Source: Candidatus Rokuibacteriota bacterium (GTDB lineage: Bacteria > Methylomirabilota > Methylomirabilia > Rokubacteriales > CSP1-6). Taken from it: 64,000 bases of DNA. Below the pieces are notes generated by a model. That model was not told the origin of the DNA, did no database searches, and saw only the letters and a program-made list of their open reading frames with translations. The stretch's first letter is position 1; each line of letters opens with the position of its first letter. The stretch spans positions 2,913 to 66,912 of the forward strand of contig JAUSJX010000081.1 in the NCBI GenBank assembly GCA_030647435.1. Reading direction: 5' to 3'. Below are positions 813-58,291 of the stretch, piece after piece. The position numbers were made by a program, and so were the translations under genes.

Positions 813-1187
813 GTGGCGGCCGTCGGGCTCTGGCTCATCCCGTTCTCCCGCGTCGGCCTCTGGGCCGCGCTGGCGGCGGTCGTCGTCGTCGGGATCTGGG
901 CCTCGCACCGCGTCGAGGCCGTGCTCGAGCGCAAGGATCCCGGCGTGATCGTCATCGACGAGGTGGCGGGTATGATGGTGGCGGTCCTGCTCCTGCCCCG
1001 CACCCTCGGTGTCCTCCTCTGCGCATTCCTCCTCTTCCGGCTCTTCGACATCTGGAAGCCCTTCCCGGCGCGCGAGGTCGAGGCCCTGCGCGGCGGCTTC
1101 GGCGTCGTGGCGGACGACCTGATCGCGGGCGTCTACGCCCTCGTGCTGATCATGGGCGCGCGGATGCTCTTCGGAGTGCCTCGGTGA
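813..1187 (+). CDS. pgpA: Phosphatidylglycerophosphatase A
   Basis: Hydrophobic PgpA-like ORF. The conserved N-terminal motif (ASGAGAGYFPVAPGTAGSL) lies upstream of the ORF-track ATG, so the true start is probably near 723-740 with a non-ATG codon. Confidence 0.65.
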   Translation: MAAVGLWLIPFSRVGLWAALAAVVVVGIWASHRVEAVLERKDPGVIVIDEVAGMMVAVLLLPRTLGVLLCAFLLFRLFDIWKPFPAREVEALRGGFGVVADDLIAGVYALVLIMGARMLFGVPR

Positions 1188-2407
1188 GCCCGGCTCATGT
1201 GCTCACGGTGGCGGACGGCGCGGCCGACGACAGGGCGGCCCGTGACGTGGCGCGCGCGCTGGCCGCAGCGGGCACCCTGGTCGCGTCGCGCCAGGTGGTG
1301 GACCCGAGCGAGGCGGCGCTCGAGCCCGCGCTGCGCGGACCGCTCGAGGGCGGCGGGCTCACGGTCGTGCTCGCAGAGCCCGGTGGCTCGGCGGGTGAGT
1401 TGGTGCCCCGCGTGGTCGCGCGCCTCACTGGCGCGCGGCTCGTCCTCAACGAGCGGCGCCTGGCGCTGCTCGAGGCCTCGTTTGCCCAGCGCGGCCAGGC
1501 CATGCCGAGGCGGCTCGACAGGCTCGGACTCTTGCCCAAGGGCGCCCTACTTCTGCCGTCGGCGCCCGACGGCTGGGATGGCTGGTCGCTCGCGGGGAAG
1601 AACGGAGTCCTCGTCGTCCTGCCCCTGGGCTCTCCACACCTCGGGAGCATGGTGAGCGACTTTCTCAAGGCGCCGGCCGGACTCGAAGCGGCGGAGGCGC
1701 TCGTCCAGCGCGTGCTCCTGACGACCGGACTCGAAGCGGCGGATGCCGAGGCGCGCGTCGGTGCATGGCTCGGCAAGGAGGGCGACGTCACGGTCTCCTG
1801 CGTGCCCGTCGAGGGCGACGTCCATGTGCGCCTGCTCGGGCGCGGCGCCACTCGCGCGCTGGCCGAGTCCGCGCTGGCGCCGGTCGAGGCCGAGGTGCGC
1901 GCGGCGCTCGGCGCCGACTGCTACGGCCGGGACGACGACCTCCTCGAGGAGGTTGTCGGGCGGCTCCTCTTGGAGCGCGCGTGGACCGTGTCGGTCGCCG
2001 AGTCGTGCACGGGCGGCCTCCTCGGCCACCGGCTGACCAATATCGCGGGTTCGTCGCGTTACGTCGAGCGCGGGGTCATCGTTTACTCGAACCGCGCCAA
2101 GGAAGACCTCCTCGGCGTCCCCGAGCCGCTCCTGCGCGCCCACGGCGCCGTCAGCGCGCCCGTCGCCCAGGCGATGGCGGCGGGCGTCTGCCGCATCTCG
2201 GGCTCGCCCTGCGGCTTGGCCGTCACGGGCATCGCCGGCCCGGACGGCGGCAGCGCGGAGAAGCCGGTCGGCACGGTCTACATCGGCTGCGCGACGCCGG
2301 CCGGCGTTGAGACGCGCCGCTGTCGCTTCGCCGGCGACCGCGTGGCCATCAAGTGGCAGTCCTCCCAAGCGGCGCTCGACATGCTTCGCCGCCGGCTGGT
2401 GCCCTGA
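1184..2407 (+). CDS. cinA: CinA family competence/damage-inducible protein (MocF-like N-domain plus NMN amidohydrolase C-domain)
   Basis: C-terminal motif VAESCTGGLLG...GIAGPDGG typical of CinA/PncC. Start overlaps the pgpA stop. Confidence 0.8.
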   Translation: MSPAHVLTVADGAADDRAARDVARALAAAGTLVASRQVVDPSEAALEPALRGPLEGGGLTVVLAEPGGSAGELVPRVVARLTGARLVLNERRLALLEASFAQRGQAMPRRLDRLGLLPKGALLLPSAPDGWDGWSLAGKNGVLVVLPLGSPHLGSMVSDFLKAPAGLEAAEALVQRVLLTTGLEAADAEARVGAWLGKEGDVTVSCVPVEGDVHVRLLGRGATRALAESALAPVEAEVRAALGADCYGRDDDLLEEVVGRLLLERAWTVSVAESCTGGLLGHRLTNIAGSSRYVERGVIVYSNRAKEDLLGVPEPLLRAHGAVSAPVAQAMAAGVCRISGSPCGLAVTGIAGPDGGSAEKPVGTVYIGCATPAGVETRRCRFAGDRVAIKWQSSQAALDMLRRRLVP

Positions 2408-2997
2408 TGCCGCGCGCCTTCGTCGCCGTCGTGCTGGACGAGCAGACGAGGCGGACCGTCGCTGCGCAGATCGACCGTCTGCGCCCGCTCTCCAAGACCG
2501 TCGCCTGGGTGCCGCCCCACAACCTCCACCTGACGCTCCGATTCCTCGGCGACCAGACAGAGGAGCAGCTGGCGGACGTGGTGCCGGCTCTCGAGGAGGC
2601 TGCCTCGGGCGTGCCGACCTTCACGCTGAGTCTCAAGGGGTTGGGCGCCTTCCCCGCCCTCGACCATCCGCGCACCCTCTGGGTCGGTGTCTCCGAGGGC
2701 GTGCAGGACGTGCAACGGCTGCAGGCCCGCGTGGCCGAGGCGCTCGAGAGGCGGGGCGTCCCGATCGAAGCGCGCGCCTGGCAGGCGCACGTCACCATCG
2801 GCCGCGTCACCGACGAGAAGCGCTGGCGGCGCGAGGGCATGCCGGAGCTCCGCTCGGCGGTGGTGCGCGGGGCCGCCACGCCCTTCGGCTCGATGCCCGT
2901 CGCCTCGATCGCGCTCATGCGGAGCGACCTCTACACTTCGGGGGCTCGCTACACGGGCATCGCCTCCGTGCCGCTGTCCTCCGAGTACGACGTCTGA
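2407..2997 (+). CDS. thpR: RNA 2',3'-cyclic phosphodiesterase (2'-5' RNA ligase LigT/ThpR family)
   Basis: Two H-x-T/S-x motifs (HLTLRFLG and HVTIGRV). ATG at 2407 overlaps the cinA TGA as ATGA. Confidence 0.75.
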   Translation: MPRAFVAVVLDEQTRRTVAAQIDRLRPLSKTVAWVPPHNLHLTLRFLGDQTEEQLADVVPALEEAASGVPTFTLSLKGLGAFPALDHPRTLWVGVSEGVQDVQRLQARVAEALERRGVPIEARAWQAHVTIGRVTDEKRWRREGMPELRSAVVRGAATPFGSMPVASIALMRSDLYTSGARYTGIASVPLSSEYDV

Positions 2998-3153
2998 CTC
3001 CCCGCCGCGTATCGCTTTCGGGACATTGACACGCCGGAAGAGCGCGTCAGGATGGATGTGTCGGACGCGCTGATTGACTTTGGGGTCCACGGGCCCCTAC
3101 AATGATGAAACTGCTCGTCGAATTGGGCGTTTACGCGCCTCGGAGGAGAACCC

Positions 3154-5283
3154 ATGGCTGAAGTAGCGAAGAGCGATCGGCGGCAGGCCCTCGACCTGGC
3201 CATCGCGTCCATCGACCGTCAGTTCGGCAAGGGTGCCATCATGCGCCTGGGCCAGGGGGGCGTGTTCGACGAGATCTCGGTCATCCCGACCGGGGCGCTC
3301 TCCCTCGACGTCGCGCTCGGCATCGGCGGCATCCCGCGCGGTCGCGTCACCGAGATCTACGGGCCGGAGTCCTCCGGCAAGACGACGCTGGCGCTGCACA
3401 TCATCGCGGAAGCCCAGCACATGGGCGGCACGGCCGCCTTCATCGACGCCGAGCACGCCCTCGACCCGAAGTACGCCAAGAACCTCGGCGTCAATACCGA
3501 CGAGCTCCTGATCTCCCAGCCGGACACCGGGGAGCAGGCGCTCGAGATCGCCGAGACGCTCGTGCGCTCGAACGCCGTGGACGCGATCGTGATCGACTCG
3601 GTCGCGGCGCTCGTGCCGCGGGCCGAGCTCGACGGCGACATGGGCGACTCGCTGCCGGGCCTGCAGGCGCGGCTCATGTCCCAGGCGCTCCGCAAGCTCA
3701 CGGCGGCCATCGCGCGCTCCGGCGGCGCCGTGATCTTCATCAACCAGATCCGCGAAAAAATAGGCGTCATGTTCGGCTGTTTCCACTACACGACGCGAGT
3801 CGTCCTGGCCGATGGAAGCACGGAGAAGATCGGCAAGCTGGTGAACCAGCGTCGAGCCGTGGAAGTCCTCTCGTACGATTCCGCCACGGGTCGGATCGAG
3901 CCGCGCCGCGTGGTGAACTGGTTCGACAACGGCCGTGTCGATCATTTCCTCCAGTTCGAGGTCGAAGGGGGACGGTCCGGTCGCCGCCATTTTGGAGCCA
4001 CGGAGAGCCACGTCATCTTCACTCCTAACGGACCGACCGCGGCCGCCGATCTGGAGGTTGGTGATGAGGTGCTCGTCTCGGTACGAGACTACGACCTCAC
4101 GGCCGGCCAGTGGCAGGTGATCCTCGGCGGCAGCTTCGGGGACGGTTCCCTCCGGAAGGTGGGCACGCACGCGGCGTCGTTCCGGGTAGGGCACAGCGAA
4201 GCGCAGAAGGACTATCTGCGCTGGAAACACTCGATGCTGGCGCCGTTCTCGAGTCCCATTCGCCGCACGGGCAATGGGTTCGGCTTTGACACGCTGGCAA
4301 TTCCGGCGCTCGCCGATCTGCGGAGCCACTACTACGGCACCGGCCGCGAGCGTCTCGCTGCCCAGGCCGTTCTCGACCGGCTCGATACGCGGGGGCTGGC
4401 CGTTTGGTACGCCGATGACGGGTCATTCATGGGGTCCTATGCCCGCTGGGGCAAGGGCAAAGCCGTGCTCTACAACACGGCCCTCTCAGCGGAATCCCGC
4501 GCTCGTGTGGTGGGTCTCTTTGAGCGCCTCGGTATCGGGCACCCCCGCGATGACGGCCGGGGTTTCTGGCTCTCCTCGGAGCAGACCGCCACATTCCACC
4601 GGATGATCGCGCCGTATGTGCATCCCTCGATGGACTTCAAGCTCCATCCGAGCGAGCGAGGCCGGTTCGAGTGGCAGCCCGAGCTCGACGGATCCGTGGC
4701 GCCCCTGGCGAATCGTGCCCGCTTGCGCGCAGTGCCGGCCCGTATCCTGAAGCGGTACGTCAAGCCCGCAACCCGTTCGACCCACCGCTTCGATCTGGAA
4801 ATTGAAGGGAATCACACCTACCTCGTGGACGGCGTGGTCGTGCACAACTCGCCCGAGACGACCACGGGAGGCCGGGCTCTCAAGTTCTACTCGTCCATCC
4901 GCCTCGACATCCGGCGGCAGGAGGCGATCAAGAACGGCACCGAGTCGATCGGCGTGCACACCAAGGTCAAGGTCGTGAAGAACAAGCTCGCGCCGCCGTT
5001 CCGCGAGGCGGAGTTCGACGTCATCTACGGCGAGGGCATCTCCAAGGAAGGTTCCGTCCTCGATGCCGCGGTCGAGCAGAACCTCGTCGAGAAGTCCGGC
5101 ACCTGGCACACGTACGGGACAGAGCGGATCGGCCAGGGCCGCGAGAACGCCAAGAAGTACCTCAAGGACAACCCCAAGATTCTGGCGGACCTCGAGGTCA
5201 AGGTGCGCGCGGCGCTGGGCCTCAAGCCGGTCGGTGGCGGGCCGGCGCCGGTGCGCGCCGAGCCCCAGAAAGCGGCCAAGTAG
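3154..5283 (+). CDS. recA: Recombinase RecA precursor interrupted by an in-frame intein (exteins 3154-3777 and 4849-5283)
   Basis: N-extein carries the Walker A motif GPESSGKTT and ends ...[16 protein letters not shown]-extein resumes [23 protein letters not shown]... through the RecA C-terminus. Shine-Dalgarno GGAGGAG lies upstream of the ATG. Confidence 0.92.
3778..4848 (+). mobile_element. RecA intein (357 aa) with LAGLIDADG homing-endonuclease domain
   Basis: Begins with Cys (CFHYTT...) immediately after RecA ...GVMFG and ends ...VVHN followed by a +1 Ser (SPETTTGG). Two LAGLIDADG-like motifs ([11 protein letters not shown] and [11 protein letters not shown]). Local GC is visibly lower than the flanking recA exteins. 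Confidence 0.85.
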
Positions 5284-5291
5284 GAGCGACC

Positions 5292-6452
5292 ATGGACTTC
5301 CACCAGCTCCTGAGCGAGTGCGTGAAGCGCAGCGCCTCCGACCTGCACCTCAAGTCTGGCTCGCGCCCCATCGTGCGCGTGCACGGCCACCTCGAGACGC
5401 AGGACGACCTTCCGGCGGTGACGCGCGACTTCATGCGCAAGACGGCCATGACGCTGCTGGGCGAGATCCGCTACAACGCGCTGATGGAGGGCGAGGAGAT
5501 GGACCTCGCCCACAGCGTCCCGAGCGTCGGGCGCTTCCGCATCAACGTCTTCCTCTGCCAGGGCGACGTGCGCGCCGTGCTCCGCCACATCCCCGAGCGC
5601 ATCCCGCCCTTCGAGGAGCTGCACCTGCCCAAGGTGCTGGAGCGCCTCTGCCTGGAGCGCCGCGGCATGGTGCTGGTCACCGGCATCACCGGTTCCGGCA
5701 AGACCACGACGCTCGCGGCCATGCTCGACTTCATGAACCGGACGCGCAACGACCACATCGTCACCATCGAGGACCCGGTCGAGTTCGTCCACGAGGACAA
5801 GAAGTGCGTCATCAGCCAGCGCGAGATCGGGCAGGACTCGACGAGCTTCGCGCAGGCGCTGCGCGCCGCCCTCCGCCAGGACCCGGACATTATCCTCGTC
5901 GGCGAGATGCGCGACGCCGAGACGATGGAAGTGGCGCTGCACGCCGCGGAGACGGGCCACCTCGTGCTCTCGACCCTCCACACGCTGAACGCGACCGAGA
6001 CGATCAACCGCATCATCTCGATCTTCCCGCCGCACCAGGAGGACCAGATCCGCGCCCAGCTCTCCGCCGTCATCCAGGGCGTCGTCTCCCAGCGCCTGGT
6101 GGTCCGCGCCGACGGCAAGGGGCGCGTGCCGGCGGTCGAGGTGATGATGATGACCGGTCTCATCCGCGAGTCCATCCGCGAGAGGCTCAAGACGCCGCAG
6201 ATCCCCACCGTCATCGCGGCGGGCCAGGCGCAGTACGGCATGCAGACCTTCGACCAGTCCCTGCTCGGCCTCTACCGCCAGGAGCTCGTGACGTACGAGA
6301 CGGCGCGGGACGCCGCGACCAACCCCGACGACTTCGATCTCAAGATCAAGGGCATCTTCTCCACCGGTGAGATGACCTGGGACGCGAGCAGCCCCGGCTT
6401 CGTGGGCGCCCCCAGCGTCGGCAGGCTGCCGGGCCCCGCCAAGCGGAACTAG
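5292..6452 (+). CDS. pilT: Type IV pilus retraction ATPase PilT (twitching motility)
   Basis: Walker A TGITGSGKTT, Asp box, and the PilT-specific AIRNLIRE-like motif (GLIRESIRE). 386 aa. Confidence 0.85.
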   Translation: MDFHQLLSECVKRSASDLHLKSGSRPIVRVHGHLETQDDLPAVTRDFMRKTAMTLLGEIRYNALMEGEEMDLAHSVPSVGRFRINVFLCQGDVRAVLRHIPERIPPFEELHLPKVLERLCLERRGMVLVTGITGSGKTTTLAAMLDFMNRTRNDHIVTIEDPVEFVHEDKKCVISQREIGQDSTSFAQALRAALRQDPDIILVGEMRDAETMEVALHAAETGHLVLSTLHTLNATETINRIISIFPPHQEDQIRAQLSAVIQGVVSQRLVVRADGKGRVPAVEVMMMTGLIRESIRERLKTPQIPTVIAAGQAQYGMQTFDQSLLGLYRQELVTYETARDAATNPDDFDLKIKGIFSTGEMTWDASSPGFVGAPSVGRLPGPAKRN

Positions 6453-6454
6453 CC

Positions 6455-6994
6455 GTGGCGTCGCGGGGCCGCCGCCCGGCGCGCGGGCCCCGGGAGCGGC
6501 GGGAGCTGGACGCGAAGGCCGCCAAGCTGGCGGCCTTCGACCTTCTCGCCCGCAAGTCCTGGAGCGCCCGCGAGCTGACGAGCCGGCTGAAGCGCCGCGG
6601 CGCGCCCGACGAGATCGCGCGTGCGGTGGTCGCCGAGCTCTGCTCCCGAGGCTACGTGGACGACGCCTCGTTCGCGCGCTTCTGGGCCGAGTCGCGCGCG
6701 CGCGGGCGGCGCGTCGGCAGCCGCCGTCTCCGCCAGGAGCTTCTCCAGAAGGGCATTCCGCGCGACGTGGCCGCCGCGGCGATCGCCGCCGCCTTCGAGG
6801 AGGCGCCCGAGGCTCTGCGGTGCCTCGAGGCGGGACGCCGCCGGCTGCCGGCCCTCCTGCGGGCCGGCCTCCCACGGGCGGCGCCGCGGCTGCGCGACTA
6901 CCTCGTGCGCCGCGGATACCCCCTAGCGGTCGTCATGCGGACGGTCGCGGCGCTCACCGGGACGCGCCCCGACGGAGACGCACCGTCCGACTGA
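6455..6994 (+). CDS. recX: RecA regulator RecX
   Basis: 179-aa Arg-rich helical repeat protein (LAAFDLLARKSWSARELTSRLKRRG...). Sits in the classic recA-recX-alaS arrangement. GTG start. Confidence 0.75.
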   Translation: MASRGRRPARGPRERRELDAKAAKLAAFDLLARKSWSARELTSRLKRRGAPDEIARAVVAELCSRGYVDDASFARFWAESRARGRRVGSRRLRQELLQKGIPRDVAAAAIAAAFEEAPEALRCLEAGRRRLPALLRAGLPRAAPRLRDYLVRRGYPLAVVMRTVAALTGTRPDGDAPSD

Positions 6995-7013
6995 CCCCCG
7001 GTATAATGACGCC

Positions 7014-9701
7014 ATGGCCATGACCGGTAGCGAGCTCCGCCAGCGCTTCCTGGAGTACTTCAGCCGCCACGGGCACACCGTGGTGCGCTCGTCGCCCCTC
7101 GTGCCCGCCCACGACCCGACGCTCCTCTTCACCAACGCCGGGATGGTCCAGTTCAAGAGCGTGTTCCTGGGCGAGGAGCGGCGGGAGTACAAGCGCGCGG
7201 CCACCGTGCAGAAGTGCGTGCGGGCGGGCGGCAAACACAACGACCTGGAGAACGTGGGCCGCACGGCCCGGCACCACACCTTCTTCGAGATGCTGGGCAA
7301 TTTCTCCTTCGGGGACTACTTCAAGGCCGAGGCCGTGGCCTTCTGCTGGGAGCTCCTGACCGGGGAGCTGGGGCTGCCGAAGGACCGGCTCAAGGCGACC
7401 GTCTTCACCGACGACGACGACGCGTTCGCGCTGTGGAAGAAAGTCGCCGGCTTGGGCGACGAGCGCATCCTGCGCCTGGGCGAGAAGGACAATTTCTGGG
7501 CCATGGGTGACACCGGCCCCTGCGGGCCGTGCTCCGAGGTGCACTTCCACCAGGGCGACCATTTCCCGTGCCCGGAGGAGCAGGCGGGCCGGACATGCCT
7601 GGGCCCGGCCTGCGACTGCGACCGCTGGCTCGAGATCTGGAACCTCGTCTTCATGCAGTTCAACCGGGACGCGTCGGGGAAAATGACGCCCCTGCCCAAG
7701 CCCTCGATCGACACGGGCATGGGCCTCGAGCGCCTCGCCGCCGTGATGCAGGGCACGCCGTCCAACTACGACACCGACCTCCTGCGCCCGCTGATCACCC
7801 GCGTCGAGCGCCTCGCGTCGAAGCGCTACGGCGCAGATGCCGAGCACGACGTCTCGATGCGGGTCATCGCCGACCACGCGCGCGCGGCCACCTTCCTCAT
7901 CACCGACGGCGTGACGCCGTCGAACGAGTGGCGCGGCTACGTGCTGCGCCGGATCATGCGCCGGGCCATGCGCCACGGCCGCATGCTCGGGCTCGAGCGG
8001 CCCTTCCTCTGGGAGGTGACCTCGACCGTGGTGGAGATTCTGGGCGGAGCGTACCCGGAGATCATCGAGGCCCGCGGGCACGTCGCGGATGCCGTGAAGC
8101 AGGAGGAGGAGCGCTTCAGCGAGACGCTCGGCCTCGGCACGGCCAAGATCCACGAGTACCTCGAGGCTCATGCCCACGACCCGCGAAAAGTCGCCGACGG
8201 GAAGTTTCTCTTCACGCTCTACGACACCCATGGCTTCCCGACCGATCTCGCGCAGGAGGTCTTCCAGGACGCCGGCTGGTCCGTGCCGCCGGAGGCGATG
8301 CAGCAGTTCGAGACCGAGATGGAGGCCCAGCGCGAGCGCGCGCGGGCGGGCGCTTCTTTCGGCGCGGCGGCCGCCGACGGGGACGGCACGGTCGAGATCT
8401 ATCGCCAGCTCTCGGCGCAGATCGGCAAGCCTGAGTTCCTCGGCTACTCCCAGCTGGCGACGCCCGCGCGGATCCTGGCCCTGGTCGGCGAGGGACGGCG
8501 GCTCACCGAGGCGGTGCAGGGCCAGGTCGTCGAGGTCATCCTCGACCGCACGCCCGCCTATGCCGAGTCCGGCGGCCAGATGGGCGATACCGGCGCCATC
8601 ATGGGGCGCGAGGGGCAGGGGTCCATCGAGGACACGTACTACCGGAGCGGCCATCTGATCGTCCACCGCGTCCGCGTCAACCAGGGGAGGTTGAGGGAAA
8701 ACGAAGAGGTGGCCGTGTCCGTCGAATCGGCCCGGCGCCAGGGTTTGAAACTCCACCACACGGGGACGCACCTGCTCCACGCGGCGCTCAGGAGGGTCCT
8801 CGGCACCCACGTGACGCAGGCGGGTTCGCTGGTCGCGCCCGACCACCTGCGCTTCGACTTCTCCCACGGCGGGCCGCTCAAGGACGGCGAGATCGAGAAG
8901 GTCGAGGATCTCGTCAACGAGCACGTCCAGGCCAACATCGTCGTCACGCCCGCCGAGATGGATCTCCAGGCCGCGCTCAAGAGCGGGGCCATGGCGCTGT
9001 TCGGCGAGAAGTACGGCGACCGCGTGCGCGTCATCCGCATCGGGGATTTCTCCACCGAGCTCTGCGGCGGCACGCACCTCGAGGCCACCGGCCAGATCGG
9101 CCTCTTCAAGGTCGTCTCCGAGGGCGCCGTCGCCTCTGGCGTCCGCCGCATCGAGGCGGTGACGGGCGAGGCCGCGCTGAGACATGTAGGCCGGCAGGAG
9201 GCGGCGCTGCGCGAGTCGGCAGGCCTCCTCAGGATCCCGCCGCTCGAGCTGCCGCGGCGCCTCCAGAAGCTCCTCGACGAGCAGAAGCAGCTCGAAAAGC
9301 AGGTGCAGCAGCTCGAGGCGCGACTCGCGAAGAACAGGGCGCAGGAGCTGGCTCTAGCCGCGAAGACCGTCGCGGGTGTGACCGTGCTGGCGGCGCGCAT
9401 CGACGGCCTCGACGCCGAAGGGCTGCGCTCGGTCGTGGATACGCTGCGCGAACGCATGGGTCCGGGCGTGATCTGTCTGGGATCCTTGATGGATGGGAAG
9501 GTCGCCTTGGTGGCGTCCGTTTCCAAGGACCTGACGAAACGCATTCAGGCCGGGAAGCTCGTGCAGGAGGTGGCGCCGCTCGTCGGCGGCAAGGGCGGTG
9601 GTCGGCCTGACCTGGCGCAGGGCGGCGGCACCGATGCCTCACGGCTCGACGAAGCCTTGGCCCTTGTGCCGGCCTTTATCGAGCGCGCGTACAAGGTCTA
9701 G
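7014..9701 (+). CDS. alaS: Alanine--tRNA ligase
   Basis: 895 aa with the class II AlaRS catalytic core (FTNAGMVQFK, HHTFFEMLGNFSFGDYFK) and a C-terminal editing domain with HTGTHLLH and CGGTH motifs. Confidence 0.95.
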   Translation: MAMTGSELRQRFLEYFSRHGHTVVRSSPLVPAHDPTLLFTNAGMVQFKSVFLGEERREYKRAATVQKCVRAGGKHNDLENVGRTARHHTFFEMLGNFSFGDYFKAEAVAFCWELLTGELGLPKDRLKATVFTDDDDAFALWKKVAGLGDERILRLGEKDNFWAMGDTGPCGPCSEVHFHQGDHFPCPEEQAGRTCLGPACDCDRWLEIWNLVFMQFNRDASGKMTPLPKPSIDTGMGLERLAAVMQGTPSNYDTDLLRPLITRVERLASKRYGADAEHDVSMRVIADHARAATFLITDGVTPSNEWRGYVLRRIMRRAMRHGRMLGLERPFLWEVTSTVVEILGGAYPEIIEARGHVADAVKQEEERFSETLGLGTAKIHEYLEAHAHDPRKVADGKFLFTLYDTHGFPTDLAQEVFQDAGWSVPPEAMQQFETEMEAQRERARAGASFGAAAADGDGTVEIYRQLSAQIGKPEFLGYSQLATPARILALVGEGRRLTEAVQGQVVEVILDRTPAYAESGGQMGDTGAIMGREGQGSIEDTYYRSGHLIVHRVRVNQGRLRENEEVAVSVESARRQGLKLHHTGTHLLHAALRRVLGTHVTQAGSLVAPDHLRFDFSHGGPLKDGEIEKVEDLVNEHVQANIVVTPAEMDLQAALKSGAMALFGEKYGDRVRVIRIGDFSTELCGGTHLEATGQIGLFKVVSEGAVASGVRRIEAVTGEAALRHVGRQEAALRESAGLLRIPPLELPRRLQKLLDEQKQLEKQVQQLEARLAKNRAQELALAAKTVAGVTVLAARIDGLDAEGLRSVVDTLRERMGPGVICLGSLMDGKVALVASVSKDLTKRIQAGKLVQEVAPLVGGKGGGRPDLAQGGGTDASRLDEALALVPAFIERAYKV

Positions 9702-20922: not shown

Positions 20923-21405
20923 CTAAACGACGTCGTCGTCGGAGAGCAGCGTCACGGCCGCCAGGGCGCAGCCCGTGCGCTCGACGCGGTGCTCGACGGC
21001 GCAGACCTTCATGTCGCGGATCGTCCAGCCGCGGCTCTTGAACGACTCCTCCAGCATGTGGACGATGGCCCGTTCGGCCTCTTCCCGGGTGGCCTTGTCG
21101 TGAAATTCCATGATCACGCCGTTGGCCTTGGGGTCGGCGGGGCGGGCCCAGCCGACCGCGGCGGCGACCACTTCGCCGGGCACTTCGCTGGTCATGGCGG
21201 CGTAGGCCGTGGGCACGACCGCGCCGGGCCGGAGCCGGGGCAGGTCCACAATCGCGGCCTCGGGCGGCAGGATGGAGGAGACCTTCACGAGGTTGATGTT
21301 GCCGATGCCCGCCGCCAGGAGGGCGTTGTCGAAGGCGTTGAGCGGGGTCGTTCCCTCAGCGCTTCCGGACGTCGTGGCTGCCTTGGTCACCGGTTTCCAG
21401 CCCAT
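20923..21405 (-). CDS. pdaD: Pyruvoyl-dependent arginine decarboxylase (archaeal-type PdaD)
   Basis: 161 aa from an ATG at 21405 with a perfect GGAGG Shine-Dalgarno. The Ser-Ser self-cleavage site (LVKVSSILP) is characteristic of PdaD. The longer track ORF is an N-terminal over-extension. Confidence 0.75.
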   Translation of the reverse strand: MGWKPVTKAATTSGSAEGTTPLNAFDNALLAAGIGNINLVKVSSILPPEAAIVDLPRLRPGAVVPTAYAAMTSEVPGEVVAAAVGWARPADPKANGVIMEFHDKATREEAERAIVHMLEESFKSRGWTIRDMKVCAVEHRVERTGCALAAVTLLSDDDVV

Positions 21406-21719
21406 TTCTCCTCCTCGCCTCCTTGGTTGAAGTGAAACGCCGCGGAAATTTTTCTTCGCCCATGTTAGCGAGTCGGGAGTGGAACGCAAGAGAAAAGTGG
21501 CCGCCGGCCGGCTTCCGATCGCTCGGCCGGCGGCTCCACGGCGGCTCATCCCGCCGCTTGACGACCGCCGATCGGGCCCGCGGCGGGCGCCTCGGCCTCG
21601 CCGACAGCCTCCGGAGAGGGCATTTTTTCCTTGCAATGCTAAAAACATGGCCCTACATTCAGAAAAATCGCATTCGCAGGTTTTTCGCGAGCGAGAAACG
21701 AACGGAGAGGAGAAAAAGA

Positions 21720-22184
21720 GTGCAAGCACTGGGGCGACACCTGCTGCTCGAGCTGTTCGACTGCGACGCGGAAGCGCTTAACAGCCTTGAGACCGTGAAG
21801 GCGTCCATGGTGGAGGCGGCGAAGCGCGCCCAGGCCACCATCGTCGACGTCGTCTTTCACGAGTTCAACCCGTTCGGCATCAGCGGTGTTGTCGTGATCG
21901 CCGAGTCGCACCTCGCCATCCACACGTGGCCCGAGTACCGCTTCGCTGCGGTGGACATCTTCTCCTGCGGCGACGTGCTCCAGCCCCAGACGGCGGCCAA
22001 CTACCTGGTCGAGCAGTTCGGGGCCTGCCGGGCCTCCGTCGTCGAGCTCCAGCGCGGCATCTTTCTCCAGGCCTCACCCATGCCCCACAAGCCGGCCGGC
22101 GCCAAGATGCCAGTCGCCAAGGTGCCAGTCGCCAAGATGCCAGTCGCCAAGGTGCCAGGCGCCAAGGTGCCAGTGGGAGGATGA
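21720..22184 (+). CDS. speH: S-adenosylmethionine decarboxylase proenzyme (small pyruvoyl SpeH type)
   Basis: LGRHLLLELFDCD...ESHLAIHTWPE core. GTG start with a GGAGAGGAG Shine-Dalgarno. The C-terminus carries a (K-M/V-P-V-A)n tandem-repeat tail. Confidence 0.8.
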   Translation: MQALGRHLLLELFDCDAEALNSLETVKASMVEAAKRAQATIVDVVFHEFNPFGISGVVVIAESHLAIHTWPEYRFAAVDIFSCGDVLQPQTAANYLVEQFGACRASVVELQRGIFLQASPMPHKPAGAKMPVAKVPVAKMPVAKVPGAKVPVGG

Positions 22185-23101
22185 GCGGTCCCCCGCAGTA
22201 CAAGTGGTTCTTCGAGAGCACCACGCCGGTTGAAGGCCACATGCACGCCATCGCCCGCACCATCGCCACCCGCCAGACCAAGTTCCAGTTCATGGAGATC
22301 TTCGAGACTCACTCCTACGGCAAGGTCCTGGTCCTCGACGGCCGCATCCAGTCGAGCCAGCACGACGAGTTCATCTACCACGAGATCCTGGTCCAGCCGG
22401 GCCTCCTGGCACACCCAAAGCCGGTCCGCGCCATGGTCATCGGCGGGGGCGAGGGCGCCACGGTCAGGGAGATCCTGCGGCATCCGAGCATCAGCGACTG
22501 CCTCATGGTGGATATCGACGGCGAGGTGGTCGAGGAGTGTAAGAAGCACCTGCCCGAGATGCACCAGGGCGCCTTCGAGGACTCGCGCACCCGGGTGCTC
22601 CACGAGGACGCCCGGGCCTACCTTGAGAAGACCAAGGAGCGCTTCGACCTGATCGTGGTGGACTTGCCGGAGCCGCTCGGGGAGGGCCCGGCCTGCCTGC
22701 TCTTCACGACCGAGTTCTACACCCTGATCCGCGACCGGCTGACGGACAACGGGATCATGACCATGCAGGCGGGCATGACCAAGATCAACGAGCTGTTCTT
22801 CTACGGCGCCGTCAACCGGACCCTCCGCGAGGTGTTCCAGGTCGTCGCGCCGTACCAGGGCTTCATCTCCTGCTTCGGGACTCCCTGGGGCTTCATCCTG
22901 GCCTCCAAGGGCACCGACCCGCGCAAGCAGACGGCTCGCGAAATCGACGGGCTGATTTCTTCGCGGATGAACCCAGATACTCTCGGCTACTGGAACGGGG
23001 CCGCGCACCTGCACTCATTCAACCTGCCCAAGTTCCTGACCAATGCCCTGGCCAAGAACGACCGGGTCATTACGGACAAGAACCCCCTGATCGTCAGCTG
23101 A
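22181..23101 (+). CDS. speE: Polyamine aminopropyltransferase (spermidine synthase)
   Basis: WFFE...HAIA tetramerisation region, SAM-site motif VIGGGEGAT and DLIVVDLPEP. The ATG overlaps the speH TGA as ATGA. Confidence 0.85.
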   Translation: MSGPPQYKWFFESTTPVEGHMHAIARTIATRQTKFQFMEIFETHSYGKVLVLDGRIQSSQHDEFIYHEILVQPGLLAHPKPVRAMVIGGGEGATVREILRHPSISDCLMVDIDGEVVEECKKHLPEMHQGAFEDSRTRVLHEDARAYLEKTKERFDLIVVDLPEPLGEGPACLLFTTEFYTLIRDRLTDNGIMTMQAGMTKINELFFYGAVNRTLREVFQVVAPYQGFISCFGTPWGFILASKGTDPRKQTAREIDGLISSRMNPDTLGYWNGAAHLHSFNLPKFLTNALAKNDRVITDKNPLIVS

Positions 23102-55091: not shown

Positions 55092-57698
55092 CTATCTGAG
55101 CATGTCCGGGTCTTCGATCACCTGCCAGAGTGAGCACAAGCTCCATCCGCAGAAAATACCTGTGGGGAATGATACTCCCGGGGGCGGGTCGGCCAGCCGT
55201 TTCAGAGACGCAAGGTCCGGATCCTCGGGAGGGAATCCCGGTGTCCCTACCCGCGGAAGAACGACGGTCCCGTCCGCAGTCCAACCCTTCACGAAATAGG
55301 TGGGAGTGGCGGTACGGAGCAGATGGTCGGGTGCTACGGGGAGCAGTGACGCCGCCCAGACCGATAGGACATCCGCCTCTCCAGCGCCGATCTCCGTGGA
55401 GGTCCCGTCGACGAGTGAAGACAGGTACACCCGGTTGTTATCGCTGTTCACCCACAGGAGATGCCTGCCTCCGCGCTGAGGGTCAGGATAGTACGGCATT
55501 CCGAATGGCTCCCAGCCCATGAGCGTGGTCACCACACTACCATTCCCATCGACAACTCCCAGATACACGCGGTACGAATCGTTGTCGGCGTAAATGTTGT
55601 GAAAGCCCTCCACAACGATGCGGCTTTCGCCAGGATTGCTGGCGTCGAGGCGCAGCACCATCGACGCAAAGACCCCAGTGAAACCCAGCCCTCCGCTGGG
55701 CGCACCCAGGGCACTCGGGGGCAGATCGAAGACTATCGTGCGCGCCGTGTGGTTCACCACCAGGGCATGGCACTCTTCTCGTTCCATGTGGAACGGATCC
55801 GGGATGTCGAGACAGTAGTCCCCGGGAAGGATCACGTTGAGATTGTCATCAAGAAGGGCACGGTAGTTTAAAACTTGTGGCCTGGCGAAGGGCGGCAGCT
55901 GCGAGAGCATGAAGAACGGGTCGAAGAGATCGGGTCCACGCACGAGGGTCGCCACGGGTGGGTCGCGGAAGACTTGATCGGGCCGTGGCCGGTTCAGGGT
56001 GAACACGTAGAAATGCGACACACCCTCACCAGGAACACCCCCTTCCACCAGGAAGGTGTCGTTGCGGGTGCCCCACGAGCGCAGAATGACGAGGCTGCCA
56101 GACGGGAGTTGAGAGCGTACGTTGAGCTTTGTCACCAGCGTCCCATTGCGAAAGTACACGTCGCCGTCGGCCGCGTTGACGAAGAGTTGCTCGATGGTCC
56201 CCACGTACTTCGCGGCCTTGCCGATGACGGCACCCCCAAACCCAGGCGGGTTATCCTTCTTCTCCTCGCCCAAGCTCCCCTGATACACCACCATGTAGCG
56301 CTCCGGAATCGGCCGGTCAGTCGGAGGACGGAAGCTGAGAGTCTGGTCGGACAGAGCATCCCCGGACGCCACCGGCCCCGAAATCGTCCAGGACCCGAGC
56401 TCGCGGCGCCCCTCACTCGCGTAGTCGCCGAAGACCTTCAGCATGCCGTCCTTCAGCGGTTCTTGCGACTCGTTCTTGCCCGTCAACAGGAACGCTTGCG
56501 GATCCGCCGGGTCCGGCGCGATCCTCGCCCCGAGCTTCCCCCGGAAGAAGTAATCCAGCAGCGCAGCGGAGTAACTGACGGCCTTCGGTAGGAGCCGCGC
56601 GGCGTAATTCTCCAGAACCTTGTCATCTAGGGCCTTCTCTTGGTCTCGTAGTGCATCGGGGAGGCTCTCATACAGGGCGCTCGGAACCGCCAGCCGATAT
56701 CCAGTGTCTCCGTCCTGCGTCTTAAGGAAGTAGCGGCGACGCACACCGCCGGGCGCATCCTCTTCATTGCCGAGCTCGACGCTCGCAAAGGATGGATACC
56801 GAAAACTGGGATTACCCGGCGCGTGATCCTCGAAGACTGTATGGTCACTGAAGAAGTTGGCGTTCGTATACTCTGCCAGCCCGACGGTGAGACGCATCGT
56901 ATCTGTGGGATTGGTCCCATCGTACCGATCGGTGTCCATGAGCCGTGCTATTGGAACTTTCGCCACCTGATCATCTACGGGCACGTTGATCGAGAAGATG
57001 CTCGGATCGACCGGCTGAAGGGTCGCGCTCAGAATGGAATCGACCCTTGGCTTGTTCCTCAGTGCCCACGCCTCAAAGCGGTCCGATACGGGGCAATGGA
57101 TGTCGTTGCGTGTATGCGCCGGTACCACCAGGTCAGCCACGAGATGCATTTGCTGACCCAGGACCTGAAGGGTCCGGGTCCATCCGTCGTCGCGGTCGAC
57201 CATCGCCCCAAGTGTTAGGGCCTCGAAATACGCCTTCCGAGCGTCGGCCCAAGCTGCCTGTCCACTCTGCCCCTGGTCGGCGTTCTGAGCCCATCGCGGC
57301 GACGACTCTCCGGAGATGACGAAAGGCAGACAAATGCTCAGCGTCCTCAACCCGGAGTCCGCCCACGACGCCACGATTGGGTTGTGGAAATGGTTCTTCG
57401 ATCGGTATGCCGCGCCGAACCACTCGCTCTCGTCGTACAGGTCCTCGGCGCGCCCGCCAAACTGAATCCATCGGAAACCGGTCCGCTCGTCGTCCGGTTT
57501 CCGTCGAAATGTCTTACCAAGCCCATCCTTCAGGCCGAGCTCATCCTTCAGATATGCCCCAGTCCCCGATATGACGGCGGCGCGATCGTTGATCGAGACG
57601 TGGGTCTCCAGCTTGAAGGCCACCGCGCCGGGGATGTCCGCCGTCGTCAGGACTGCGAGGATCAATGTCCCAAAAAAGCGGGGCTTGTACGCGATCAT
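55092..57698 (-). CDS. Large secreted hypothetical protein (~868 aa)
   Basis: Signal peptide MIAYKPRFFGTLILAVLTTADIPGAVA. No family recognised. Lies in a lower-GC (~60%) segment. Confidence 0.45.
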   Translation of the reverse strand: MIAYKPRFFGTLILAVLTTADIPGAVAFKLETHVSINDRAAVISGTGAYLKDELGLKDGLGKTFRRKPDDERTGFRWIQFGGRAEDLYDESEWFGAAYRSKNHFHNPIVASWADSGLRTLSICLPFVISGESSPRWAQNADQGQSGQAAWADARKAYFEALTLGAMVDRDDGWTRTLQVLGQQMHLVADLVVPAHTRNDIHCPVSDRFEAWALRNKPRVDSILSATLQPVDPSIFSINVPVDDQVAKVPIARLMDTDRYDGTNPTDTMRLTVGLAEYTNANFFSDHTVFEDHAPGNPSFRYPSFASVELGNEEDAPGGVRRRYFLKTQDGDTGYRLAVPSALYESLPDALRDQEKALDDKVLENYAARLLPKAVSYSAALLDYFFRGKLGARIAPDPADPQAFLLTGKNESQEPLKDGMLKVFGDYASEGRRELGSWTISGPVASGDALSDQTLSFRPPTDRPIPERYMVVYQGSLGEEKKDNPPGFGGAVIGKAAKYVGTIEQLFVNAADGDVYFRNGTLVTKLNVRSQLPSGSLVILRSWGTRNDTFLVEGGVPGEGVSHFYVFTLNRPRPDQVFRDPPVATLVRGPDLFDPFFMLSQLPPFARPQVLNYRALLDDNLNVILPGDYCLDIPDPFHMEREECHALVVNHTARTIVFDLPPSALGAPSGGLGFTGVFASMVLRLDASNPGESRIVVEGFHNIYADNDSYRVYLGVVDGNGSVVTTLMGWEPFGMPYYPDPQRGGRHLLWVNSDNNRVYLSSLVDGTSTEIGAGEADVLSVWAASLLPVAPDHLLRTATPTYFVKGWTADGTVVLPRVGTPGFPPEDPDLASLKRLADPPPGVSFPTGIFCGWSLCSLWQVIEDPDMLR

Positions 57699-58291
57699 GG
57701 TTGGGACCCCGGTTTGCGAAAGGGTTGAAGGCCGAGTTGGCTGCGTTCCTCGTTGATGAGCCGCATCAGATTCGGCACTTGCTCCCATCGGACCATCTCC
57801 ATGCCGAGCGGCAGATCGGCGTCGTGAATGCGGGCCCCTCTGGTAGTCGGACGCCTCAATGGAATCGTCACATAGGTCTCGGGGCGGTCCCGATCACGCG
57901 GATCCCGGGGCGGACGATCCACAACTGGGACATCACGACCGTAGTAGGCTGCATATCCGGGCGTGTATGCCGGGTAATACACCTTGAGCTTGGGCTCAAG
58001 GATCCATCCAAAGGGTGTGAAGTGTGTACGGTGTGGAATCGCGAACTGCCCATTGCCATCGCTGAGGGTTTCGTAGACATCCCAATCGCCCTCGGCTACC
58101 TCCGGCCCAGTCGGCATTTCACGCGTCCAGATGGCGACCACGGCCGCACCAGCGACGGGCCGACCGGTTTCGGCATCGACGACTTGGCCGCTGTATGGAC
58201 CACTCGAATAGACCAAGTGTCCGCAGCCTGCGGCCAGGCTGAACGCCACCCCCAGCAGCAGACAGACACTCGCACTGCTCCTCCAGCCCAT
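57695..58291 (-). CDS. Lipoprotein with carboxypeptidase-regulatory-like (transthyretin-like) domain
   Basis: Lipobox LAAGC, then GQVVDAETGRPVAGAAVVAIW...SDGNGQFAIP. Confidence 0.45.
   Translation of the reverse strand: MGWRSSASVCLLLGVAFSLAAGCGHLVYSSGPYSGQVVDAETGRPVAGAAVVAIWTREMPTGPEVAEGDWDVYETLSDGNGQFAIPHRTHFTPFGWILEPKLKVYYPAYTPGYAAYYGRDVPVVDRPPRDPRDRDRPETYVTIPLRRPTTRGARIHDADLPLGMEMVRWEQVPNLMRLINEERSQLGLQPFRKPGSQP

Follow-up and report, generated by a model that had tools for sequence, protein, structure and literature searches.

A predicted Mycobacterium leprae-type intein with a LAGLIDADG domain in recA of a Candidatus Rokuibacteriota bacterium

The stretch of DNA analysed here, referred to as the window, comprises 64,000 nucleotides (nt) of contig JAUSJX010000081.1 of a Candidatus Rokuibacteriota bacterium (assembly GCA_030647435.1, positions 2,913 to 66,912 of the forward strand). 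It carries a recA gene in which the RecA sequence is divided by a long in-frame insert, and this raises the question of what the insert is and how an active recombinase could be obtained from such a gene. The recA open reading frame (ORF; 2,130 nt, 709 amino acids (aa)) starts with ATG and is free of internal stops and frameshifts (Table 1). RecA sequence breaks off after ...EKIGVMFG (aa 208) and picks up again at aa 566. The segment in between (precursor aa 209-565) is in frame and 357 aa long, begins with a Cys (Cys1) and ends with His-Asn, and the first residue of the C-extein that follows is a Ser (Ser+1). We consider it highly probable (about 0.9) that this segment, at the b site of recA, is a class-1 intein of full length in which a monomeric LAGLIDADG homing endonuclease is embedded, and which would both splice and home. 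The original prediction, made from the sequence alone, had proposed a 357-aa insert at 3778-4848 of a 709-aa ORF, flanked by these same junction residues. Its coordinates proved exact, both in the ORF and in the gap against intein-free RecAs, each of the junction residues is in place, and the intact reading frame gave no sign of the decay that had been considered possible.

The interrupted recA gene and its insertion site

The boundaries of the insert were defined against intein-free relatives, for which RecA spliced in silico (352 aa) served as the query. All of the 120 best-matching RecA clusters (85-99% identity, mostly 348-352 aa) were intein-free, two of greater length being artefacts of read-through. 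When the precursor was aligned with five intein-free RecAs of 95-99% identity, the gap covered exactly aa 209-565 and the flanks were continuous. In the empty allele L081 (459-1517), the intein-free site reads ...ATCGGCGTCATGTTCGGC|TCGCCCGAGACGACC.... On a 261-kb metagenome contig bearing an intein-free relative (L082), the genes are arranged as radical-SAM, pgpA, cinA, ligT, recA, pilT-like ATPase, recX and alaS, and the window shows the same order at 1184-9698, with cinA, a member of the ligT/thpR-like 2',5' RNA ligase family, recA, a pilT-like T2SSE ATPase, recX and alaS. Since the gap is exact and the gene order is common to an intein-free relative, the insert represents a clean presence/absence polymorphism at an orthologous locus. 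The precursor also matched TIGR02012, the RecA equivalog model of NCBIfam, with 525 bits (cut-off 325).

The insert was recognized by the NCBIfam models for the N-terminus (TIGR01445, 41 bits, cut-off 24.5) and the C-terminus (TIGR01443, 22-24 bits, cut-off 15.6) of inteins, and blocks A, B, F and G, as expected of an intein, were all found. Both of its ends matched the crystallised M. tuberculosis RecA mini-intein (phmmer, 3e-10), and blocks F and G align to D422/H429/H439/N440 of PI-MtuI, the M. tuberculosis RecA intein. The PI-MtuI counterpart of these blocks reads FDLEVEELHT...VVVHN (...FDLEVEELHTLVAEGVVVHN), and VVVHN is also present in the insert of the window. The central part was matched by Pfam LAGLIDADG_2 (PF03161) with 63 bits (cut-off 25, E 4e-17) and was labelled by PHROGs as phrog_11023, 'homing endonuclease with LAGLIDADG motif' (1.8e-13). 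The two LAGLIDADG motifs from which an endonuclease domain had been predicted both lie within the PF03161 match.

Conservation was assessed in 74 b-site inteins from genomes and in a separate protein alignment of 44 sequences. Among these 44-74 relatives, T75 and H78 (the TxxH of block B) are invariant and C1 is nearly so; D339 and H346 of block F and H356 and N357 of block G are likewise invariant or nearly invariant. The endonuclease motifs, ...FGD122G... and ...ADD214G..., each have an acidic residue before Gly. Their cores are G121-D122-G123 and D213-D214-G215, in which G121, D122, D213, D214 and G215 are invariant in the 44 relatives.

The AlphaFold2 model computed on the 44-sequence alignment had a mean predicted local distance difference test score of 93.1 and a predicted template modelling (TM) score of 0.88. 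In a Foldseek search of the PDB, its top matches were the full-length endonuclease-containing inteins TliVMA, PI-PfuI, PI-SceI and PI-TkoII (E 5e-12 to 3e-10, and 5e-12 to 1e-10 for the first three). The central domain matched I-SceI/I-WcaI (TM 0.68, root-mean-square deviation (rmsd) 3.4-3.7 A over about 200 columns), and the splicing domain matched the RecA intein of M. tuberculosis at 31% identity, with an rmsd of 1.4 A over 101 columns. Further matches were DnaB and DnaE inteins and the hedgehog Hint domain. According to this model, the insert has a Hint fold together with the pseudo-dimeric alpha-beta-beta-alpha-beta-beta-alpha fold of LAGLIDADG enzymes.

The insertion point, ...KIGVMFG|SPETTTGG..., is inside the RecA core and corresponds to G205|S206 in M. 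tuberculosis/M. leprae numbering and to G204|N205 in mature E. coli RecA, the N-extein aligning with M. tuberculosis RecA 1-205 and with E. coli RecA up to G204. These numbers were derived from alignment offsets to PDB RecA chains and by aligning the window RecA with those of E. coli and M. tuberculosis; the M. tuberculosis sequence used recovers the published site a at K251. The M. leprae RecA intein occupies site b (residues 206-570) and that of M. tuberculosis site a (residues 252-691) (PMC4513877, Table 1). Judged by its position, the intein of the window is a RecA site-b (M. leprae-type) allele, as the original prediction had proposed, rather than one of the M. tuberculosis site. The counterpart of site a, residue 254 of the window RecA, is uninterrupted, and the precursor scored 468 bits against NF007072, the NCBIfam model for M. 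tuberculosis-type intein-containing RecA, below its cut-off of 1024. In E. coli RecA, the DNA-binding loop L2 consists of residues 195-209. As G204|N205 falls within these residues, the intein splits L2 in mid-loop, and because of this interruption RecA would work here only after protein splicing.

Upstream of recA, a sigma-70-like promoter (TTGACT-N18-TACAAT, 3074-3103) and a ribosome-binding site (GGAGGAG, 3142-3148) were observed. Both of them, as well as the stretch AACTGCTCGTCGAAT...GGCGTTT in the interval between promoter and start, are kept in the intein-free and intein-containing alleles L081-L083. This conserved stretch could be an operator, e.g. an SOS box.

Table 1. Coordinates of the recA precursor gene and of its parts in the window.
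Feature	Position	Strand	Basis
recA precursor (N-extein, intein and C-extein)	3154-5283	+	ORF; Pfam RecA 5e-131 in two stretches, RecA_C; TIGR02012
N-extein, RecA aa 1-208, with P-loop and first half of loop L2	3154-3777	+	alignment
Predicted intein, 357 aa, Cys1 to Asn357	3778-4848	+	family models, AlphaFold2 fold, gap against intein-free RecA
Hint splicing domain, N-terminal part, intein aa 1-105	3778-4092	+	TIGR01445 over aa 1-82; PI-MtuI alignment; Foldseek
Block A	3778-3843	+	within Hint N-terminal part
Block B with T75/H78	3994-4023	+	within Hint N-terminal part
LAGLIDADG homing-endonuclease domain, intein aa ~106-310	4093-4707	+	PF03161; phrog_11023; Foldseek I-SceI/I-WcaI
LAGLIDADG motif 1, intein aa 115-125, D122	4120-4152	+	inside PF03161 match
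LAGLIDADG motif 2, intein aa 207-217, D213/D214	4396-4428	+	inside PF03161 match
Hint domain, C-terminal part, intein aa 311-357	4708-4848	+	TIGR01443; PI-MtuI alignment; conservation
Block F, D339 and H346	4786-4827	+	within Hint C-terminal part
Block G, DGVVVHN, H356 and N357	4828-4848	+	within Hint C-terminal part
C-extein, spliced RecA aa 209-352 and stop; Ser+1 codon 4849-4851	4849-5283	+	alignment

Distribution, composition and selection

With the intein alone as the query, 524 matches were obtained among 5.8 billion proteins. Nearly all of the matches listed are RecA proteins that contain a LAGLIDADG_2 domain; the best one (88% identity) comes from Methylomirabilota/Rokubacteria metagenome-assembled genomes (MAGs), and at least one already carries the NCBI name 'intein-containing recombinase RecA'. 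A survey of 185,579 species, with one genome per species, revealed 425 loci that encode a relative of the window intein, in hosts from at least eight phyla. The hosts and junctions described next are those of the best 80 of these 425 loci. The closest 47 (59-78% identity) belong to Rokubacteria/Methylomirabilota, Eisenbacteria, Acidobacteria (Pyrinomonadaceae, Blastocatellia), Armatimonadota, Gemmatimonadota and one Verrucomicrobia-labelled MAG; the remaining 33 (42-49% identity) belong to Actinomycetota, including Mycobacteriales, and to one Anaerolineae MAG. All 73 complete junctions are at the same site, ...G[VI]M[FY]G|C...HN|SPE[T]T..., with Ser+1 in every case. Homology with these 73 b-site inteins, the actinobacterial ones included, extends over the whole intein (residues 1-357) at 42-79% identity. 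Many such b-site sequences are thus already in public databases and the RecA site-b intein type is already known. The original prediction had called a recA intein uncommon in a high-GC non-mycobacterial genome, which is overstated: such inteins are published from other actinobacteria, Thiovulum and a cyanobacterium, and the 425 loci spread over many phyla.

Some loci and proteins deviated from this architecture. In L012, L040 and L047, a recognisable C-terminal junction motif is missing in one frame. L040 is truncated where its contig stops; in L012 and L047 the reason may be a frameshift, decay of the intein copy or an assembly error. The long frames (1157-1232 aa) of L034, L052, L069 and L075 were considered as candidates for second inteins and were rejected, the extra length being stop-free high-GC sequence flanking recA. 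Mini-inteins were also rejected for the long RecAs P0148 (529 aa) and P0221 (549 aa), which are C-terminal read-through or frameshift fusions with an intein-free site b.

The similarities of inteins and exteins to the window are incongruent. In rokubacterial alleles whose exteins share 91-92% identity with the window, the inteins reach only 73-74%, and in other Rokubacteria, with exteins at 84-86%, the inteins fall to 61-63%. In an Eisenbacteria allele, the extein is 65% and the intein 71% identical. A Mycobacteriales MAG and an Anaerolineae MAG share inteins of 76% identity and exteins of 61%. Over all pairs, intein and extein identity correlate with a Spearman coefficient of 0.53, with outliers in both directions. 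Moreover, empty recA alleles exist that are near-identical to the exteins of the window (95.7% in nt, 99% in aa). Because of this incongruence and of the empty alleles at 99% extein identity, the pattern is that of gain, loss and horizontal transfer of a homing element, which is apparently still mobile.

Base composition changes abruptly at both junctions. The GC content at third codon positions (GC3) is 0.79 in the intein and 0.94 in the exteins (Fisher p = 5e-9), and a sliding GC3 profile has a sharp down-step at the N-junction and a sharp up-step at the C-junction. The lower GC that had been read from the insert was therefore found at third positions; the overall difference is small (65.0% in the intein, 68.1% in the exteins and 69.9% in the window). 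The GC3 of the intein is about 1.5 standard deviations under that of the window genes and still in their range (median 0.885, minimum 0.71), and the intein looks foreign but partly ameliorated. The horizontal acquisition proposed in the original prediction is supported by the GC3 step, the intein-free alleles and the incongruent similarities. The composition survey also pointed out other long frames with low GC3 (0.71-0.78), at 55095-57893 (-) and 20926-23098; these genes, too, may be foreign, or else weakly expressed.

Traces of homing were looked for in the exteins. At 3754-3762 of the window, 6-8 codons before the junction, recA codons 201-203 are GAA AAA ATA, three neighbouring codons that all end in A, and the intein-free alleles L081 and L082 have the synonymous GAG AAG ATC. 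Extein codons ending in A or T cluster by the junction (5 of 21 within 10 codons, p about 0.005), one of these five (GGA572) being also present in an empty allele. Close to the junction, the density of differences from L081 was not unusual (4 in 60 nt, with about 2.6 expected). Codons 201-203 give a weak hint of a co-conversion tract left by homing.

When the intein was compared with the closest one for which DNA was available (L083, 88% aa identity), the ratio of nonsynonymous to synonymous substitution rates (dN/dS) was 0.10 in the N-terminal Hint part and 0.11 in the endonuclease domain, with an unsaturated dS of 0.58-0.77. It therefore looks as if the capacities to splice and to cleave DNA were both selectively maintained. 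The dN/dS of the exteins, calculated against an intein-free allele, was 0.05, which indicates that recA is a live gene.

Related inteins were also found in putatively viral sequences. The viral set comprised 225 loci. The IMG/VR contigs L084-L095 encode UvsX-like recombinases in which a related intein, of 35-43% identity, occupies the equivalent site, with the junction ...GVM[FY]G|C...HN|SPETT.... For instance, the genes of L084 (2900-3979) and L086 (3001-4083) match phrog_97 with E values of 6e-68 and 2e-49 once the insert is removed. UvsX-like genes of cultured phages contain more distant inteins (about 25% identity). Phages have been proposed as disseminators of inteins in the case of mycobacteriophages (PMC5050341), and the viral-collection contigs could be vehicles that spread the RecA b-site intein.

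Proposed splicing and homing, and alternative explanations

Taken together, these features suggest the following scheme, in which splicing would take the standard class-1 route. Translation of recA would give a 709-aa precursor without recombinase function, its loop L2 being broken by a foreign protein of about 40 kDa. Cys1, helped by T75 and H78 of block B, would carry out an N-S acyl shift; Ser+1 would then attack the thioester by transesterification, which would lead to a branched ester. Cyclisation of Asn357, aided by H356, H346 and D339, would release the intein, and an O-N shift would restore a normal Gly-Ser peptide bond. The reaction would yield a mature RecA of 352 aa, which shares 95-99% identity with its closest intein-free counterparts, and would set free the 357-aa intein. 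The endonuclease domain of the latter would cut intein-free recA at a highly conserved coding sequence, and recombinational repair of the cut allele would copy the intein into it. The intein may possibly spread via UvsX/RecA homologues of phages, which carry related inteins at this site. Homing of this kind would account for the sporadic presence of the intein among near-identical recA alleles and for its spread between phyla.

Several points speak against this scheme. Pfam Intein_splicing (18.8-21.7 bits) and Hint (14.1 bits) stayed under their gathering cut-offs, although the NCBIfam models passed theirs. No donor intein near-identical to that of the window was found, the best match having 88% aa identity and a dS of 0.69; 'recent' homing is therefore a relative term. 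The reduced GC3 could partly be due to weaker codon selection and not to a foreign origin. Expression-linked codon bias does not easily account for the GC3 step, since intein and exteins share one mRNA. Finally, the b-site intein of M. leprae reportedly does not splice in E. coli and is said to be atypical in its endonuclease cleavage. In view of this, activity in a heterologous host is not guaranteed, and such tests may mislead.

It is also conceivable, but rather unlikely, that splicing has been kept while homing has been lost. The endonuclease domain would then be retained for a structural (folding or splicing) or regulatory role, and the patchy distribution would reflect old invasions followed by losses through recombination with empty alleles. 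The 88% aa identity of the closest donor would be compatible with this, as would the GC3 of 0.79, which is already in the range of host genes and suggests a long residence; PI-MleI, the M. leprae b-site endonuclease, reportedly cleaves in an atypical manner as well. Yet none of the 44 relatives deviates at the LAGLIDADG aspartates or their glycines, and the endonuclease domain has a dN/dS (0.11) just as low as the splicing domain has. The absence of the intein from alleles with 99% identical exteins and the incongruence of intein and extein similarity across phyla also argue for an element that has kept its ability to home.

Less probable still is conditional splicing, in which the intein in L2 would act as a post-translational switch and active RecA would appear only under, e.g., DNA damage, single-stranded DNA, redox change, metal ions or temperature. 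Precedents exist in the RadA intein of Pyrococcus horikoshii and in mycobacterial DnaB inteins (PMC4513877, PMC6195587). The position of the insertion, in a loop through which a stress-response protein contacts DNA, would suit such a role, and so would the retention of the intein clade, under purifying selection, across many soil phyla. On the other hand, the sequence itself does not require it, and selfish persistence accounts for the data. Since Cys1 is the only cysteine of the 709-aa precursor and mature RecA has none, no intramolecular disulfide trap of the DnaBi1 kind can form. Very close relatives are intein-free, which implies that the intein is dispensable for RecA regulation in this lineage. 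A dead, non-splicing insertion or an assembly chimera, which would make recA effectively a pseudogene, is very improbable: the Pfam Intein_splicing score under its cut-off is in line with it, but it disagrees with the intact 2,130-nt frame with all splicing residues conserved, the extein dN/dS of 0.05, the same architecture at 73 independent loci, the high-confidence structure model and the synteny of the locus with intein-free genomes.

Comparison with known inteins and implications

The closest described system is the M. leprae RecA intein (Mle RecA, PI-MleI), the prototype of site b, with which the intein of the window was compared by its published description. Both share the insertion point G205|S206, the Cys1 ... 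His-Asn | Ser+1 junctions and a LAGLIDADG domain, and their lengths are 365 and 357 aa. Their hosts differ, M. leprae being an actinobacterium and the host of the window belonging to Rokubacteria/Methylomirabilota. Actinobacterial b-site inteins, those of Mycobacteriales MAGs included, have merely 42-53% identity to the window intein. PI-MtuI, at site a of M. tuberculosis RecA, has a homologous splicing domain with the same constellation of C1, TxxH, D, H and HN, but it is inserted at K251|C252, uses Cys instead of Ser as the +1 residue and is 440 aa long.

Other b-site RecA inteins have been published from Thermomonospora, Saccharomonospora, Verrucosispora, Isoptericola, Thermobifida, Thiovulum sp. 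ES and Oscillatoriales JSC-12 (PMC4513877). They occupy the same site as in the window, have 353-367 aa and occur in non-mycobacterial hosts of three phyla. None of the published hosts belongs to Methylomirabilota/Rokubacteria, Eisenbacteria, Acidobacteria, Armatimonadota or Gemmatimonadota, the phyla of the closest relatives of the window intein, and a literature search for inteins in Rokubacteria found no paper. The UvsX-like inteins of phages are at the equivalent site, but their host protein is a divergent recombinase and their relation to the window intein is distant. I-SceI and I-WcaI resemble the central domain in having two LAGLIDADG motifs in a single chain; at 16-18% identity, they are free-standing, intron-encoded enzymes, whereas the domain of the window is embedded in an intein.

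The mechanism proposed here is not new. Recognition of the intein corrects the gene model, which becomes a 352-aa mature RecA and a free 357-aa endonuclease; annotation pipelines tend to label such genes as plain or partial 'recombinase RecA'. The survey shows that hosts of the M. leprae-type RecA intein reach well past the three phyla of the literature consulted. These sequences may be of use in studies of intein evolution and as sources of new splicing domains and of rare-cutting LAGLIDADG enzymes directed against the universally conserved recA sequence.

A broader interpretation, which we put forward tentatively, is that the intein of the window is one allele of a currently mobile, cross-phylum clade in uncultivated bacteria of soils and groundwater (Rokubacteria, Eisenbacteria, Acidobacteria, Armatimonadota and Gemmatimonadota). 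Empty recA alleles that are nearly identical would coexist with it in the environment, phage UvsX-like genes would serve as shuttles, and conditional splicing in L2 would perhaps gate RecA. If this is true, the clade would provide a natural system in which the intein homing cycle could be watched in the wild.

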